Shown here piece after piece: positions 7,462-14,366 of a stretch of 64,000 nt of DNA. This DNA comes from a phage. Positions within the stretch are counted from its first letter, which is position 1, and each line of letters starts with the position of its first letter. The position numbers were made by a program, and so were the translations under genes. The notes under the pieces are model-generated. The model did not search any database. It saw only the letters and a list, made by a program, of their open reading frames with translations, and was not told the origin of the DNA. Location: the sequence record PZ445489.1. One strand, 5' to 3'.

Positions 7462-8868
7462 ATGTCTTTACAACTATTACGTAATACTCGAATCTTCGTG
7501 TCTACGGTTAAGACTGGTCACGATAAGACCAACACGCAAGAGATTCTAGTTCAGGATGATATTTCTTGGGGTCAGGACAGTAACTCAACAGATATTACTG
7601 TTAACGAAGCTGGTCCGCGTCCTACTCGTGGTTCTAAACGTTTTAACGATTCCTTGAATGCAGCTGAGTGGAGCTTCTCCACCTATATCCTGCCATACAT
7701 GGATAAAACTACTAGCAAACAAATTGTTCCTGACTATATGTTATGGCATGCACTTTCTAGTGGTAAAGCTATTAACCTTGATGGAGATACTGGAGCACAT
7801 AATAATGCTACTAACTTCATGGTTAACTTCAAAGATAACGCATATCACGAACTGGCTATGCTGCATATTTACATTCTAACTGACAATGCGTGGAGTTACA
7901 TTGACTCTTGCCAGATCAACCAGGCAGAAGTTAACGTTGATATTGAAGATATTGGTCGTGTAACTTGGTCTGGTAACGGTAATCAGCTCATTCCGTTAGA
8001 TAGCCAACCATTTGACCCTGATGCATTAGGTATTGATGATGAAACTTATATGACTATTCAGAGTTCTTACATTAAGAACAAGTTAACTATCCTAAAAATT
8101 AAGGATATGGATTCTGATAAGGCATATGATATTCCTATTACTGGTGGTACTTTTACCATTAATAACAACATCACGTACCTAACCCCGAATATTATGTCAC
8201 GTGTAAATATTCCAATCGGCTCATTTACGGGTGCGTTTGAGTTAACGGGTTCTTTGACAGCTTACCTTAATGATAAGTCTCTTGGTTCTATGGAACTGTA
8301 CAAAGATCTGATTAAAACCCTTAAGGTAGTTAACCGTTTTGAAATCGCACTTATTTTGGGTGGAGAATATGACGAGGAACGTCCGGCAGCTGTGTTAGTT
8401 GCTAAACAGGCGCACGTTAATATCCCTACTATTGAGACTGATGATGTACTTGGTACTTCAGTAGAGTTTAAAGCTATTCCTACTGATTTGGATACTGGTG
8501 ACGAAGGTTATCTTGGATTTTCTAACAAGTATACAAAAACTACTGTGGCTAATCTGATTGCTACGGGGGATGGTGCTAAAATTCCTCCAGTTCCCGTTAA
8601 ATCCATTACAGTTAAGTCGGCAGGTGAGGCTGTTTCTGTAACAAATAGTAATACTTTACAGATGTCTGTTGAGGTAACACCTTCAGAAGCTACTAATAAG
8701 GCTGTAACTTGGTCTATTTCTAGTGGTAACGCAGCTACAATTGATGCAGAATCTGGGTTATTAACAGCTGATGCCTCTAAAACTGGTGCAGTTACTGTGA
8801 AGGCTGTAGCTAAAGATGGTTCTGGTGTAGAAGGTACTAAAACTATCACAGTTAGTGCTGGTGGTTAA
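7462..8868 (+). CDS. Major tail tube protein with C-terminal Ig-like (BIG2-type) domain (pb6-like)
   Basis: 468 aa; C-terminal ~90 aa Ig-like segment (SITVKSAGEAVSVTNSNTLQMSVEVTPSEATNKAVTWSISSGN); position before chaperones and tape measure. Confidence 0.8.
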   Translation: MSLQLLRNTRIFVSTVKTGHDKTNTQEILVQDDISWGQDSNSTDITVNEAGPRPTRGSKRFNDSLNAAEWSFSTYILPYMDKTTSKQIVPDYMLWHALSSGKAINLDGDTGAHNNATNFMVNFKDNAYHELAMLHIYILTDNAWSYIDSCQINQAEVNVDIEDIGRVTWSGNGNQLIPLDSQPFDPDALGIDDETYMTIQSSYIKNKLTILKIKDMDSDKAYDIPITGGTFTINNNITYLTPNIMSRVNIPIGSFTGAFELTGSLTAYLNDKSLGSMELYKDLIKTLKVVNRFEIALILGGEYDEERPAAVLVAKQAHVNIPTIETDDVLGTSVEFKAIPTDLDTGDEGYLGFSNKYTKTTVANLIATGDGAKIPPVPVKSITVKSAGEAVSVTNSNTLQMSVEVTPSEATNKAVTWSISSGNAATIDAESGLLTADASKTGAVTVKAVAKDGSGVEGTKTITVSAGG

Positions 8869-8872
8869 ATAA

Positions 8873-9775
8873 ATGTACTACTCTCTAATGCGAGAGTCAA
8901 AAGTTATAGTTGAGTATGATGGTAGGGCATTTCATTTTGATGCCCTATCAAACTATGATATACAGACTTCCTACGAGGAATTCAAGACTCTTCGTAGGAC
9001 TGTTCATCGTAGAACTAACTATGCAGACTCTATTATAAATGCTCAAACCCCCTCTTCTATCTCTCTAGCAATAAATTTCAGTAATACTCTTACAGAGGCT
9101 AACTTCTTTGAATGGTTAGGTTTTGATAGAAAAGGTAATACTTTCTTACTCCCACTATATAGTAGTAATATTGAACCTATTATGTTCAATATCTATATAG
9201 TAAATAAAGATAATAACTGTGTATATTTTGAAAACTGTTATGTATCTACGGTAGATTTTTCTTTAGATAAGAACATACCAATTCTTAATGTTGGTATTGA
9301 GTCTGGGAAATTCTCAGAAGTATCTACCTATAGAGAAGCAGCTTCTATTATACAGGGTGAAGTAATGTCTTACAGCCCAGTAATAGCTTCTACTAATGGC
9401 AGCATCTTACCCGGTCTTATTTCTGCCTCTTTATCTTTCCAACAGCAGTGCTCCTGGAGAGAGGATAAGAGTGTTTTTGATATAAATAAAATTTATAATA
9501 ATAAAAGAGCTTATGTAAATGAAATGAATGCTTCGGCAACCATTTCTCTATATTACTTGAAACGTTTTGCAGGAGATATGGTTTACAATATCGAACCGGA
9601 GACAGATGTACCTTTAAATATAAGAAATAATAATATTTCTATAGATTTTCCTTCAGCACGTATTACAAAACGCCTAGATTTCTCAGATGTGTATAGAGTT
9701 GAGTGGGATATTATACCTACTGCTTCTTCAGACCCAGTGAGAATAGATTTCTTTGGAGAAATTAAAAATGATTAA
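8873..9775 (+). CDS. Hypothetical tail structural protein (p140-like position)
   Basis: 300 aa, N/I/S-rich, AT-rich codon usage contrasting with neighbours; between tail tube and chaperone genes. Confidence 0.4.
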   Translation: MYYSLMRESKVIVEYDGRAFHFDALSNYDIQTSYEEFKTLRRTVHRRTNYADSIINAQTPSSISLAINFSNTLTEANFFEWLGFDRKGNTFLLPLYSSNIEPIMFNIYIVNKDNNCVYFENCYVSTVDFSLDKNIPILNVGIESGKFSEVSTYREAASIIQGEVMSYSPVIASTNGSILPGLISASLSFQQQCSWREDKSVFDINKIYNNKRAYVNEMNASATISLYYLKRFAGDMVYNIEPETDVPLNIRNNNISIDFPSARITKRLDFSDVYRVEWDIIPTASSDPVRIDFFGEIKND

Positions 9776-10172
9776 TTTAAAAGATATTACTCTTGATACT
9801 CGTACTATTACTCTTTCCTACCCAGGTATGCCGAACTTTAAATTAGAACTTAACTATATGTCTCGTGCTACCTCTAAACGTGTTATTTCTTCTGCTAAAC
9901 GCGATGAATGGGTTAATGGTACTTTGATTCAGGTACAGGATGATGATAAGTTCATTGAAGCCTTCGTTGACGCAGCTATTAAAGGTTGGACCGGTTTGAC
10001 TGTAGGTGACGTTGAAAAACTGATGCTGATTGAAACAGATGCTGATCCTGCTACTGAAGTTCCTTTTAGCCGCGATAATGCTGTAATGCTCATGCAGAAC
10101 TCTGCTGCGTTTGATTCTTGGATCAACCAGACAGTGTTCCACTTAGACACTTTTCGTAGCCCAAAAGCGTAA
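9753..10172 (+). CDS. Putative tail assembly chaperone
   Basis: 139 aa ORF upstream of tape measure gene; typical chaperone position. Confidence 0.45.
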   Translation: MEKLKMINLKDITLDTRTITLSYPGMPNFKLELNYMSRATSKRVISSAKRDEWVNGTLIQVQDDDKFIEAFVDAAIKGWTGLTVGDVEKLMLIETDADPATEVPFSRDNAVMLMQNSAAFDSWINQTVFHLDTFRSPKA

Positions 10173-10233
10173 AGAACTCCTAGATGCTGTTGCTGATTTT
10201 GCAGATAAGTGTATTAAAAGCTCAGCATCTAAA

Positions 10234-10602
10234 ATGACTAAACAACAATATTTAATACTTTGTGAATCAATGGGTATAGAGCCTGATCCTAAGGCCATGC
10301 CTGTTGAACTTGAAGACTTTCCCCCTATTGTAGCTACTAGTATGAATATTTATAACAGTCTAATTGACTGCTTCATACCAGGTGACTTTCCTATCTTTAT
10401 AGGTAAAGATAAGGCTGCTCTAGGTGTTTTATTTGATATTTATGGGATTACTGATCCTATAGAGAAAGAATTTGTTCTACACATTATCAATATATTTGAT
10501 GCTAAAGCTGTAGATGCTGCACGTAAACGTGCTGAGAAGCATAAACCGCAAAACGGAAGGATTCCTAACGTTAAGCCACATGCTAGATCTCGTGCACGGT
10601 AA
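10234..10602 (+). CDS. Putative tail assembly chaperone (possibly expressed as a frameshift extension of the upstream ORF)
   Basis: 122 aa; its reading frame is open back to 10147 and overlaps the end of the upstream chaperone ORF. Confidence 0.4.
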   Translation: MTKQQYLILCESMGIEPDPKAMPVELEDFPPIVATSMNIYNSLIDCFIPGDFPIFIGKDKAALGVLFDIYGITDPIEKEFVLHIINIFDAKAVDAARKRAEKHKPQNGRIPNVKPHARSRAR

Positions 10603-10637
10603 AAGTTTCCTCCAATGGGCGTTCCACGATGAGGCTT

Positions 10638-10668
10638 GGCTCTGGGTGATTTGCCCAGAGCCTTTTTT
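10638..10668 (+). terminator. Rho-independent terminator
   Basis: GGCTCTGGG-TGATTTG-CCCAGAGCC hairpin followed by TTTTTT. Confidence 0.75.
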
Positions 10669-10685
10669 ATTGGGAAAAATAAAAC

Positions 10686-13600
10686 ATGACTGATAAGCTA
10701 ATACGAGAATTACTAATAGACGTTAAACAGAAGGGGGCAACTCGTACTGCAAAGTCTATTGAAAACGTATCTGATGCGTTGGAAAATGCTGCTGCTGCTT
10801 CCGAACTGACAAATGAGCAGTTAGGTAAAATGCCCAGAACTCTTTATTCCATTGAGAGGGCAGCAGATAGAGCAGCGAAAAGTCTTACTAAAATGCAAGC
10901 TAGTAGGGGTATGGCTGGTATCACTAAATCCATTGATGGTATTGGTGATAAGCTAGACTACCTGGCTATCCAGCTTATTGAAGTAACAGATAAACTAGAA
11001 ATTGGATTCGATGGAGTTTCTAGATCTGTTAAAACAATGGGTAATGATGTTGCAGCTGCAACAGAAAAAGTCCAGGATAGATTATATGATACTAATAGAG
11101 CATTAGGTGGCACAGCTAGGGGTTTTAATGATACTGCTGGTGCCGCTGGTAGAGCTTCTAGAGCTATTGGTAATACTTCTGGTTCAGCACGTGGTGCAAC
11201 TCGTGATTTTGCGGCAATGGCTAAGATCGGTGGTAGTCTACCTATTATGTACGCAGCTCTTGCTTCCAACATCTTCGTTTTGCAATCAGCATTTGAACAA
11301 CTTAAACTAGGTGATCAGCTAAATCGTCTAGAAAAATTTGGTGTTATAGTAGGTACTCAGACAGGTACTCCTGTTCAGTCCCTTGCTAGATCACTACAAG
11401 AGGCAGCTGGCTATGCAATCTCTTTTGAAGAAGCTATGAGGCAAGCATCCTCAGCGTCCGCTTATGGATTTGACGCCGAACAACTTAATAAATTTGGTTT
11501 AGTAGCTCGTCGTGCTGCTGCTGTTCTTGGCGTTGATATGACTGATGCACTTAACCGTGTAATTAAGGGTGTATCTAAACAAGAAATCGAACTTCTGGAT
11601 GAACTTGGTGTTACTATTCGTCTTAATGATGCTTATGCTGATTACGTTAAGCAGTTAAATGCTGCAAACACAGGTATAACATATAATATTAACAGCCTTA
11701 CTACTTTCCAGAAACAGCAGGCGTATGCTAATGCTGTTATAGCAGAGTCTACTAAACGTTTTGGCTACTTAGATGAAGTTTTACGTGCTACTCCGTGGGA
11801 GCAATTTGCCGCTAATGCTGATGCCGCACTGAGAAAGATTCAGCAGGCTGCTGCTAAATACTTAGGGCCCGTAATTGATGCTATCAACACAGTATTTTAT
11901 ACTTCTCAGGCTTCTGTATCTGCTGAAGCAGCTAGAGCTCAAGAAAAAACTAATAGACAGATAGATCCTACCAACGTTGGTGCTGTTGCTTTAAGTTTAG
12001 CCGCTTCTGAAGAAGGGTATAATAAAGCTCTAGATATGTATAAGGAATCTCTTGATAAGCGTAATAAGCTAAAATCTGAGTTCGATAAACGAATGGAACA
12101 AGCAGATTTCTATACAAAATTAGCTATACGTCAAGTTGGTGAAGGTATTCCTGTTGGTCTTGCGGCAGCAGGTGCTTCGGAGGCCAATAAGCAATTTGTA
12201 GCAGAAACTGCAGCTATGGGTCTACAAGTAACTAGACTTGGTAAGGAAGTAGAGGATTCTACAGAGAATCTCAATGCTTGGAAATCAGCGTATCAAGCTG
12301 CTGGGGCCGCTGCTGCAAAGGCTAGTCCAGAGTTTCAGAAGCAAATTAATCTACAGAGAGATACTACTGATCCTGATGCTGTATACGATTTTAACTCTAC
12401 TGTATTAAAAGGACTAACTGAGCAGCAGAAAGCGTACAATCAGACTAAGAAAACGGCTAGTGACTTAGCTAATGACATACAGAACGTTGCTCAGAATACA
12501 GATACTGCTGCTAAAACTAGTGCTACTTTAGCAGATGCTATAAAAAACATAGAATCTCTATCTCTAGGTACTGGTAAGAGTGCTGATGAATATGTTAAAA
12601 ACCTTAATCTGGGTTATAACACCCTGTCTGAAATGAAAACTGCATCTCAGGCTCTATCTGAGTATGTTAAACTAACTGGTAATGAAACTAAAAATCAGTT
12701 AGCAGTTCAACAGAAGATAGCTGATGTATACAATCAAACTAAGGATAAGGAAAAGGCTCAGGAAGCTGGTAGACGTTTAGAGTTGCAACAGTTAGAAGAG
12801 CAAGAAGCTGCTTTACGCCGTGTTCTTCAAACAAACCAGGGGAATAAAGCTGTTGAGAAAGAAATTGAAAAAATTCAGCTGGAGAAACTTAAACTTACCA
12901 ATCAGGGTATGGAAGCTCAGAAGAAGATCAAGGATTACACAGATAAAATTCTTGGTGTAGATCGTGAGATAGCTCTTCTGAATGACCGTACTATGACTAC
13001 TACTCAATATAGATTAGCTCAGCTAAAACTAGAACTAACTGTAGAGAAAGAGAAGTACGAATGGTATACAAAACAAGCGGACAAACAGAAAGAGGCGGAA
13101 CAGTCTAGACGTGCTCAAGCACAAATAAGCAGGGAACTATGGGAAACGGAGAAGCAGGCAACTGCCTCACATGTATCAGCTCTCATGGATGCACTAGAAG
13201 TCAGCCAAACACAAAGAAATGTTACTGGCCAAGCTCAGATTCTTACGGAAAGATTATCTGTTTTGCAAGAACAGCTAGAACTATCTAAGGGCAATACCGA
13301 AGAAGAGATCAAGTATCGTAATGAGATCTATAAAACTGCTGCTGCTCTAGAGCAACTTAGAAAGCAAAGAGAAGGCCAAATGCAGCAACAGGTAGGATCT
13401 TCTGTGGGTGCTGTGTACACTCCTACAACTGGACTATCTGGGGAAGACAAAGATTTTGCAGATATGCAAAATAGAATGGCTTCTTATGATCAGGCAATCT
13501 CTAAGCTATCTGAATTAAATTCTGAAGCAACCGCTGTGGCTCAAAGTATGGGTAACTTAACTAACGCTATGATCCAGTTCTCTCAGGGATCCCTAGATAC

Positions 13601-14366
13601 TACCTCCTTGATTGCTTCTGGCATGCAAACTGTATCTTCTATGATTCAGTATAGTACTAGTCAACAGGTTAGTGCTATTGATGCAGCTATCGCAGCGGAG
13701 CAGAAACGTGATGGTAAATCAGAAGCATCTAAAGCTAAATTGAAGAAGCTAGAAGCTGAAAAGCTGAAGATTCAACAAGATGCAGCTAAGAAGCAGATTA
13801 TCATCCAAACTGCAGTAGCAGTTATGCAGGCAGCAACAGCTGTACCATACCCGTTCTCTATCCCTCTGATGGTAGCGGCAGGTTTGGCAGGTGCATTAGC
13901 TCTTGCTCAGGCATCCTCTGCATCTAGTATGTCAAGTATTGCGGATTCTGGGGCGGATACAACTAGTTACTTAACCTTAGGAGAGCGTCAGAAGAATATA
14001 GATGTGTCCATGTCTGCTAATGCAGGTGAACTATCTTATATTCGTGGCGATCAAGGTATAGGTAGTGCCAACTCTTTCGTTCCTCGTGCTGAGGGTGGTA
14101 ATATGTATCCAGGGGTTAGCTATCAAATGGGTGAGCATGGTACAGAAGTAGTTACCCCTATGGTTCCTATGAAAGCTACACCTAATGATGAGCTAAAAAC
14201 CTCGTCTAACTCAACTTCAGGAAGACCTATCATCCTGAATATTAGTGCTATGGATGCTGCAAGTTTTAGAGAGTTTGCCTCTAGTAATAGTGGTGCTCTG
14301 AGAGACGCAGTAGAATTAGCTCTGAATGAGAACGGTGCTAGTCTGAAAACATTAGGAAATTCTTAA
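10686..14366 (+). CDS. Tail tape measure protein (pb2-like)
   Basis: 1226 aa, long coiled-coil-rich Ala/Gln/Lys sequence with hydrophobic segment near C-terminus; between chaperones and distal tail protein. Confidence 0.9.
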   Translation: MTDKLIRELLIDVKQKGATRTAKSIENVSDALENAAAASELTNEQLGKMPRTLYSIERAADRAAKSLTKMQASRGMAGITKSIDGIGDKLDYLAIQLIEVTDKLEIGFDGVSRSVKTMGNDVAAATEKVQDRLYDTNRALGGTARGFNDTAGAAGRASRAIGNTSGSARGATRDFAAMAKIGGSLPIMYAALASNIFVLQSAFEQLKLGDQLNRLEKFGVIVGTQTGTPVQSLARSLQEAAGYAISFEEAMRQASSASAYGFDAEQLNKFGLVARRAAAVLGVDMTDALNRVIKGVSKQEIELLDELGVTIRLNDAYADYVKQLNAANTGITYNINSLTTFQKQQAYANAVIAESTKRFGYLDEVLRATPWEQFAANADAALRKIQQAAAKYLGPVIDAINTVFYTSQASVSAEAARAQEKTNRQIDPTNVGAVALSLAASEEGYNKALDMYKESLDKRNKLKSEFDKRMEQADFYTKLAIRQVGEGIPVGLAAAGASEANKQFVAETAAMGLQVTRLGKEVEDSTENLNAWKSAYQAAGAAAAKASPEFQKQINLQRDTTDPDAVYDFNSTVLKGLTEQQKAYNQTKKTASDLANDIQNVAQNTDTAAKTSATLADAIKNIESLSLGTGKSADEYVKNLNLGYNTLSEMKTASQALSEYVKLTGNETKNQLAVQQKIADVYNQTKDKEKAQEAGRRLELQQLEEQEAALRRVLQTNQGNKAVEKEIEKIQLEKLKLTNQGMEAQKKIKDYTDKILGVDREIALLNDRTMTTTQYRLAQLKLELTVEKEKYEWYTKQADKQKEAEQSRRAQAQISRELWETEKQATASHVSALMDALEVSQTQRNVTGQAQILTERLSVLQEQLELSKGNTEEEIKYRNEIYKTAAALEQLRKQREGQMQQQVGSSVGAVYTPTTGLSGEDKDFADMQNRMASYDQAISKLSELNSEATAVAQSMGNLTNAMIQFSQGSLDTTSLIASGMQTVSSMIQYSTSQQVSAIDAAIAAEQKRDGKSEASKAKLKKLEAEKLKIQQDAAKKQIIIQTAVAVMQAATAVPYPFSIPLMVAAGLAGALALAQASSASSMSSIADSGADTTSYLTLGERQKNIDVSMSANAGELSYIRGDQGIGSANSFVPRAEGGNMYPGVSYQMGEHGTEVVTPMVPMKATPNDELKTSSNSTSGRPIILNISAMDAASFREFASSNSGALRDAVELALNENGASLKTLGNS

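Follow-up and report, generated by a model that had tools for sequence, protein, structure and literature searches.

Programmed frameshifting in the genes for tail assembly chaperones is a textbook feature, and outside phages the frameshift that yields PA-X of influenza A virus is ascribed to slow decoding of CGU, a codon that is rare in vertebrate hosts. In phage lambda the gpG/gpGT pair is reportedly made by -1 programmed ribosomal frameshifting at G_GGA_AAG, as Levin, Hendrix and Casjens are said to have described in 1993 and Xu, Hendrix and Duda in 2004. Bacterial sites of the type UUU_Ynn are likewise said to be prone to +1 shifts, the argI error being the case credited to Fu and Parker in 1994 and to Schwartz and Curran in 1997. 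The shift of PA-X is a +1 shift that takes place within UCC_UUU_CGU (Jagger 2012; Firth 2012; reviewed in PMC5009743). UUU_Ynn has also been proposed for Yersinia YopN-TyeA, where the site is debated (PMC3789692). In the SEA-PHAGES actinobacteriophages 350 forward and 2368 backward shifts were recorded, mostly in tail-chaperone genes, and for the forward shifts no general motif was identified (PMC10885494). The archaeal virus HSTV-2 also has a forward (+1) frameshift in its tail chaperone (PMC5009743). The present study concerns two open reading frames (ORFs), here called ORF1 and ORF2, in the genome of a Tequintavirus (T5-like phage; sequence record PZ445489.1), of which a whole stretch of 64,000 nucleotides was analysed and is referred to as the window. 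Our data indicate that the two ORFs are likely to be a chaperone pair of the lambda G/GT type made by +1 programmed ribosomal frameshifting.

The overlap of ORF1 and ORF2 and its TTT_CG[T/A] site

ORF2 lies in the +1 frame relative to ORF1, and over a short overlap both frames are open (Table 1). The -1 frame is stopped by TAG at 10157-10159 and then by TAG at 10181-10183. At the composition of the window, 29 stop-free codons before an ATG have a chance probability of about 0.12-0.14. The open +1 stretch alone is thus within chance, and its significance rests only on comparison with relatives. Homologous loci were taken from annotated phage records, from IMG/VR contigs (79 loci) and from assemblies encoding more distant ORF1 homologues. 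Among the first 85 loci the downstream ORF was in the +1 frame in 54 and in the -1 frame in 29, and 2 loci were truncated. Seven extra lineages were picked solely because their ORF1 ends in '...F-R...', and by construction they form separate 50% clusters; all seven were found to be +1 with TTT_CG[T/A], which gives 61 +1-class loci. At 50% ORF1 identity the first locus set forms 12 clusters, 7 of the +1 and 5 of the -1 class. The 61 +1-class loci span at least 14 lineages below 50% identity.

It was found that zero-frame TTT_CG[T/A] is present exactly once per overlap in 61/61 +1-class loci, and TTT_C is the sole same-amino-acid +1 re-pairing site that all 61 overlaps share. In the first 54 of these loci no other zero-frame TTT stands before a pyrimidine. 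The most extreme stops in these loci are a +1-frame stop 5 nt before TTT and a zero-frame stop directly after CGN (TTT CGT TAA/TAG), and the intersection of the 61 overlaps covers -5..+6 around TTT. The frame change must therefore occur inside NN_NNN_TTT_CGN, where TTT -> TTC is the sole re-pairing that keeps the tRNA cognate. In a DNA alignment of 14 lineages TTTCG are the only invariant columns. The codon of the slip-site Phe129 is TTT in 36/36 distinct sequences and never TTC; the equally conserved Phe115, 14 codons upstream, served as a control and is TTT in 27 and TTC in 9. The Arg codon that follows the slip-site Phe is always CGT or CGA, and AGA is the commonest Arg codon in 6 of the 7 lineages tested. 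Given a conserved Phe-Arg, the joint probability of TTT and CGN in 7 deep lineages is about 3e-5. By this comparison the constraint acts on the nucleotides, not on the protein alone.

An earlier reading of this DNA, made from its letters without database searches (the sequence-only reading), had given the coordinates of the overlap, the +1 relation and a frame open from 10147, and all of these are borne out by the stops and the ORF ends. It had left the direction and the site uncertain and had proposed to compare the overlap in related phages; the +1 frame and the invariant TTT_CG[T/A] in 61 loci now point to +1 as the direction and to 10152-10157 as the site. It had also stated that there is no classic -1 heptamer. 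That detail needs amending, as C_CCA_AAA (10160-10166) is formally an X_XXY_YYZ heptamer, the only one in phase. A -1 shift at C_CCA_AAA was considered and discarded, since it would enter a frame that runs for only 7 codons before TAG 10181-10183 and cannot reach ORF2, and since the first C is polymorphic. The CCA/TCA change is found among close relatives, being non-synonymous in the zero frame (Pro/Ser) and synonymous in the +1 frame (Ala). The stretch CCCAAAAG, to which the same reading had pointed, is indeed present at 10160-10167 but is not the conserved site, as it shows this CCA/TCA polymorphism and its AAA_G is missing from 23/61 loci.

Each of the 29 loci of the -1 class has exactly one in-phase canonical heptamer in the overlap (GGGAAAC in 10, AAATTTT in 9, AAAAAAC in 7, AAATTTA in 2 and AAATTTC in 1). 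Canonical heptamers in all 29 -1 homologues mean that frameshifting is the rule of this chaperone family. The +1 and -1 lineages are interleaved in a dendrogram built by the unweighted pair group method with arithmetic mean, which is too crude for counting switches. A natural control is provided by one locus (L096) with a -1 ORF2 and an A_AAA_AAC heptamer, in which the same Phe-Arg is encoded TTC CGC; the other members of the -1 class have Thr, Asn, Ser, Gln or a stop directly behind the Phe.

Two further observations were made on the homologues. In one -1-class locus (L061; IMG/VR 3300017780_002463, ~1870-1880) the string A_AAT_TTT_CGG has a -1 heptamer and UUU_CGN on one Phe codon, and this locus could be an intermediate in switching direction. 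Four metagenomic loci of the +1 class (L054, L055, L069 and L071) have GGAGG-like strings 6-36 nt past TTT_CGT, for example TTTCGTGTCGGAGGAAAAGGAG, and unusually long zero-frame tails of 16-19 aa. These strings may be simply +1-frame Leu-Glu-Glu codons, or they may have a role.

The linker and the start of ORF2

The nucleotides between the site and the annotated start of ORF2 are usually treated as intergenic. In 29 distinct close relatives the variable sites of this linker are distributed over the +1-frame codon positions as 5/1/16, the corresponding figures being 11/4/44 for ORF2 proper and 9/2/27 for ORF1 in its own frame, and TTTCGT is invariant in the same relatives. The pattern is that of purifying selection in the +1 frame, i.e. 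the linker evolves as coding sequence. Conservation of its amino-acid sequence extends to Eos, Klebsiella and other genera. ATG, GTG and TTG are all absent from the +1 frame at 10147-10233. With no start codon in that frame, the linker could be translated only by ribosomes arriving from ORF1.

The ATG at 10234 makes a poor start. Its pairing with the Shine-Dalgarno (SD) region is -0.1 kcal/mol, as against -4.2 to -9.1 kcal/mol for 7 neighbouring genes, and is worse than that of 69% of the ATGs in the window. The same position is ATA/ATT (Ile) in Eos, in Klebsiella phages and in one further locus (L040), where the surrounding ...SK(M/I)TKEQYL... is kept. Across lineages, gene callers have placed the ORF2 start at widely differing positions. 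A local RNA hairpin begins 23 nt past the CGT codon and ends 2 nt before this ATG, and it is unconserved across lineages and genera. Being too far from the site and unconserved, it is probably no frameshift stimulator; it might further hinder internal initiation at the ATG.

The zero-frame tails past the site are 0-19 aa long, unrelated and unconserved. The +1-frame (or -1-frame) continuation is of conserved length and runs to a shared (S)KMTKEqYl.MCE motif. Fusions rebuilt in 23 lineages are 252-290 aa long and align through the junction. A natural in-frame fusion was not found, and no ORF1 homologue exceeds 205 aa among the best 150 of 307 50%-identity clusters. Thus the early stop has been kept, which is what a need for surplus short form would predict.

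That ORF2 is no independent gene is strongly supported by these comparisons, and ORF1 and ORF2 are very probably expressed as a frameshift fusion. A conserved ORF2 start with its own ribosome-binding site, together with no conserved overlap, had been named in the sequence-only reading as evidence against a frameshift; what is found is an ATG that lacks an SD and is Ile in relatives. Programmed frameshifting as the link between the two chaperone ORFs is strongly supported by comparative evidence, namely the frame relation, the unique invariant site, the constraint on the linker, the absence of an independent ORF2 start and the -1 sister lineages.

The proposed slip and its alternatives

Most ribosomes would end at the ORF1 stop and give the 134-aa short chaperone. 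A minority would slip with UUU (10152-10154) in the P site and CGU (10155-10157) in the A site. The peptidyl-tRNA-Phe (anticodon GAA) would shift one base forward, from UUU with its G:U wobble to UUC with G:C, and the ribosome would next decode GUA and stay in the +1 frame through the linker and ORF2. This slip is proposed by analogy with bacterial UUU_Ynn and with the UCC_UUU_CGU of influenza PA-X, and on balance UUU_CGU with a +1 slip of tRNA-Phe is probably the site and the mechanism. A -2 slip of tRNA-Phe was considered as the conserved mechanism and rejected, as the two bases before TTT vary (CT, AC, CC, AT, TT, AG). The efficiency of the shift is expected to be low. A low unstimulated efficiency would be enough if the required ratio resembles the 30:1 of lambda (PMC5009743). 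By analogy with lambda, the N-terminal domain shared by the two products would bind the tape measure protein and the C-terminal domain would recruit the tail tube protein.

Several points weigh against this proposal. The conserved Phe sits in a protein motif, DLxNF, that is present also in -1-class relatives, and its conservation is therefore partly at the protein level. The E-site codon varies; it is ACT in the window and AAC, ACC, TCC, TCT, AAT, ATT, CTT or CAG elsewhere. Of the 518 Arg codons in the window 216 are CGU, more than any other, and CGA stands in the A site in a minority of lineages. With CGU so common, the usual rationale of a slow A-site codon does not obviously hold, and A-site starvation is no obvious driver. 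A stimulatory RNA structure was not found, the 14-lineage alignment having no consensus pairs and no Rfam match, and the upstream CCACTTAGACACT has no SD-like element. A +1 slip in the P site (TF/V) and a -2 slip on the same bases (TFF/V) are inseparable by sequence alone. In the sources accessible no experimental evidence for the shift turned up, be it a fusion protein, a peptide or a reporter assay.

Among the alternatives, the one that survives best accepts a real frameshift and places it at A_AAA_G (10163-10167) beside the ORF1 stop, either as a -2 shift (...FRSPKKRKELL...) or as a +1 shift of tRNA-Lys from AAA to AAG (...FRSPKRKELL...). AAA_G lies inside the overlap, leads to the right frame, is part of the stretch that the sequence-only reading had flagged, and is present in 38/61 +1-class loci, including all close T5 relatives. 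It has a precedent in the database. In the record of Salmonella phage Shivani (KP143763, 2015; our locus L098) a two-piece joined 'tape measure chaperone' of 277 aa is annotated at 93207-94038 (5208-6039 of L098), beside a short coding sequence (CDS). An exact-sequence look-up showed that the deposited protein (AJA73579.1/YP_009194776.1) is exactly the -2 model at AAA_G, here TCA_AAA_GCG, with ...FRSSKKRKELL.... The gene pair is the same, with 98% identity to ORF1, and so is the idea of a fusion; the join stands 12 nt downstream of TTT_CGT, and to that extent the record speaks against the site favoured here. It is the only joined chaperone CDS among the T5-like records inspected; the T5 RefSeq record and three others inspected have separate CDS. 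The accompanying Shivani paper does not mention the join and gives neither a rationale nor a supporting analysis for it. Besides being missing from 23 of the 61 loci, AAA_G in some loci comes too late: a zero-frame stop precedes any AAA_G in TTT CGT TAA (L039, L008, L095), in TTT CGT TAG (L091) and in TTT CGT AAG TAA (Eos). The CAAAA string is accounted for by +1-frame Gln-Lys/Asn codons, and -2 re-pairing at AAA_G would put tRNA-Lys on CAA with 2/3 positions paired. A shift at A_AAA_G is thus unlikely, and our comparison suggests that the join coordinates of Shivani should be revised.

It is more unlikely still that there is no frameshift and that two separate polypeptides are made, ORF2 being translated from the ATG at 10234. 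That ATG is present, and the entries for T5 (T5.143/T5.142), FFH1, Elw and others, in fact nearly all GenBank/RefSeq records, give the two ORFs as separate CDS. A genome note of 2018 describes T5 as having no predicted frameshift signal, which is also a point against the frameshift proposed here. However, the ATG has no SD and is replaced by Ile in Eos, Klebsiella and L040 with its flanks conserved, and the starts chosen by gene callers are scattered. Purifying selection acts in the +1 frame on the 78 nt before it, a stretch that nevertheless offers no start codon. Neither the frame relation nor TTT_CGN varies, and the -1-class relatives have textbook heptamers.

The runs known to support transcriptional slippage are far longer than TTT. 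RNA polymerase might drop one U while copying the T run, and translation would then be standard; trans-frame products can arise by transcriptional slippage too (PMC5009743), and the window has four T's at 10151-10154. Such an origin is extremely improbable here, the run being no longer than 3-4 T, and only TTT in 21/61 loci (preceded by AAC, ACC, TCC or CAG), and the invariant C and G after it having no role under polymerase slippage.

Beyond a +1 slip at UUU_CGU in this phage, a wider proposal can be made tentatively. It could be possible that UUU_CGN alone is a self-sufficient programmed +1 signal on bacterial ribosomes, one that works without a rare A-site codon, a stop, an SD or RNA structure, and that over evolutionary time it and -1 heptamers (A_AAU_UUU, G_GGA_AAC) have replaced each other in both directions within a single chaperone family, always on the same conserved Phe codon or next to it. 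The direction of the shift would then be a freely exchangeable trait. Its efficiency would depend on a factor that is not A-site starvation, such as what tRNA-Phe gains in passing from wobble to Watson-Crick pairing, or the conserved nascent DLxNF peptide.

Gene context and comparison with described systems

The region 9700-10700 has 99.9% identity to E. coli phages NG_A1 and FFH1 and 80-99% identity to 445 T5-like (Demerecviridae) records. ORF1 and ORF2 follow the tube genes and precede the tape measure gene (Table 1), an order that matches the annotation in FFH1, T5 and Shivani. In the T5 reference T5.143 and T5.142 are both named 'tail assembly chaperone' and given as two separate CDS. In metagenomic homologues the chaperone pair has the Pfam neighbours Phage_tube_2, Baseplate_Tube_p140 and TMP_N.

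Table 1. Features of the chaperone locus, numbered by position in the window
Feature	Position	Strand	Details
Tail terminator			first in the local order, before the pb6-like gene
pb6-like tube protein	7462-8868		
Second tube/baseplate-tube protein	8873-9775		
ORF1, short tail assembly (tape measure) chaperone	9768..10172	+	134 aa; ATG 9768, TAA 10170-10172; equivalent to T5.143 and lambda gpG
Predicted frameshift product	join(9768..10154,10156..10602)	+	277 aa; junction ...VFHLDTF/VAQKRKELL... ('/' marks the shift point)
Overlap with zero frame (ORF1) and +1 frame (ORF2) both open	10147..10172	+	26 nt; +1 frame closed upstream by TAG 10144-10146
Proposed +1 shift cassette ACT_TTT_CGT	10149..10157	+	core TTT_C 10152-10155; TTT_CGT 10152-10157
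Linker, annotated as intergenic, apparently +1-frame coding	10156..10233	+	78 nt; VAQKRKELLDAVADFADKCIKSSASK
Earlier candidate CCCAAAAG	10160..10167	+	holds in-phase C_CCA_AAA and AAA_G
Local RNA hairpin	10181..10231	+	51 nt; perfect closing stem of 9 bp, TAGATGCTG/CAGCATCTA; z = -2.3
ORF2 as usually annotated	10234..10602	+	ATG 10234; T5.142 equivalent; read as the C-terminal 'T-like' domain of the fusion
Terminator-like hairpin and T run	10638..10672	+	11-bp stem with 7 GC pairs, then TTTTTTATTG
Tape measure protein gene, pb2-like	10686..14366	+	1226 aa; presumed client of the chaperones

ORF1 and ORF2 are identified as chaperones by their gene position, by PHROG membership and by a weak likeness in fold. 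ORF1 matches phrog_313 'tail assembly chaperone' with an E-value of 1e-33 at positions 12-139 of the 258-position profile, and ORF2 matches phrog_3914 'tail assembly chaperone' as well as positions 170-258 of phrog_313. As both match halves of one phrog_313 profile, ORF1 and ORF2 form one protein family unit. In Pfam no match was obtained for ORF1, ORF2 or the extended ORF2, and a sequence search of PDB with the fusion alignment gave only a chance match. A homologue search with the 277-aa fusion as query also gave no match although family members are in the collection, which is read as a limit of the method. An AlphaFold 2 model of ORF1 built on 123 homologues reached a mean predicted local distance difference test score (pLDDT) of 94.8. 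With Foldseek in BFVD it found the annotated tail assembly chaperones (TACs) of the unrelated phages Loki, Gemini, Suba and Mu (FS-gp41) at E-values of 1e-3 to 5e-2, and against PDB it found the HK97 TAC 2ob9 at a template modelling (TM) score of 0.33-0.39 with a non-significant E-value of 2.2. A single-sequence model of the fusion was unusable (pLDDT 45.8).

The ATG of ORF1 at 9768 has an SD pairing of -6.4 kcal/mol. The longest reading of ORF1 reaches a TTG at 9753, and the start annotated in relatives is the ATG with its GGAGA SD. The first 8 nt of ORF1 (9768-9775, ATGATTAA) are also the end of the tube-like gene before it, stop codon included, which suggests translational coupling. Downstream of ORF2 the hairpin at 10638-10672 would lower the transcription of the tape measure gene relative to the tube and chaperone genes, and a putative rho-independent terminator is annotated in T5 at the equivalent place. 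In T5 (NC_005859 95777-96529; L009) an endonuclease gene, T5.141 of 250 aa, stands between the chaperone and tape measure genes; at 10603-10685 of the window there are 83 nt with the terminator and without the endonuclease gene. The chaperone/tape-measure junction is thus a site of homing-endonuclease presence/absence variation. The window has no tRNA genes.

Among siphoviruses T5 is a classical model, and phage therapy and biocontrol make wide use of T5-like phages. If the frameshift is real, the annotation would be corrected to one 134-aa and one 277-aa product with no free 122-aa protein, and studies of T5 tail structure and assembly would gain the right chaperone species to express. For recoding research in E. 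coli the locus would offer a compact, naturally conserved +1 cassette with a PA-X core and with natural -1 'alleles' in sister lineages. The idea of a fusion is already in one database record, that of Shivani. In the literature searched there was no description of a conserved UUU_CGN site, for T5 or otherwise, nor of the division of the family into +1 and -1 members.

The closest comparison is with lambda G/GT. In both, the two ORFs are flanked by the major tail gene on one side and the tape measure gene on the other, and an excess of the short form is expected. The second ORF, which lacks an independent start and overlaps the first at its 3' end, serves as a C-terminal extension. Homologues within the T5-like family use lambda-like heptamers such as G_GGA_AAC. 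Unlike lambda, the shift proposed here is +1 and not -1, and it would use a single-tRNA site, UUU_C, in place of a tandem heptamer; sequence similarity to lambda G/T was not detected (no Pfam match).

With influenza PA-X the locus shares an identical UUU_CGU core and the same proposed shift of P-site tRNA-Phe from UUU to UUC, and RNA structure is needed in neither. The full TCC_TTT_CGT of the PA-X type is present in four relatives (L038, L039, L091, L094). The two differ in that the ribosomes are bacterial and not vertebrate, the E-site codon of the window is ACT and not UCC, and CGU is common in the window. The bacterial UUU_Ynn sites follow the same tetranucleotide logic on E. coli-type ribosomes, with no stop codon or SD stimulator (PMC5009743). 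Whereas those cases are incidental errors or have a debated site, here the site is kept in at least 14 deep phage lineages and would give access to a conserved 140-aa domain. E. coli prfB, which encodes RF2 and shifts at CUU_UGA with an SD about 3 nt upstream of the slip codon, resembles the present locus in the +1 slip of a single P-site tRNA and in an enterobacterial host. The A site here is CGT, so the A-site stop of prfB is absent, and so are its upstream SD-like stimulator and its autoregulatory logic. The actinobacteriophage and HSTV-2 cases make a long form reached by a +1 shift an accepted minority variant, in chaperone families that are different and unrelated. Frameshifting in tail chaperones is thus an ordinary phage strategy, and it is the forward direction that is unusual here.

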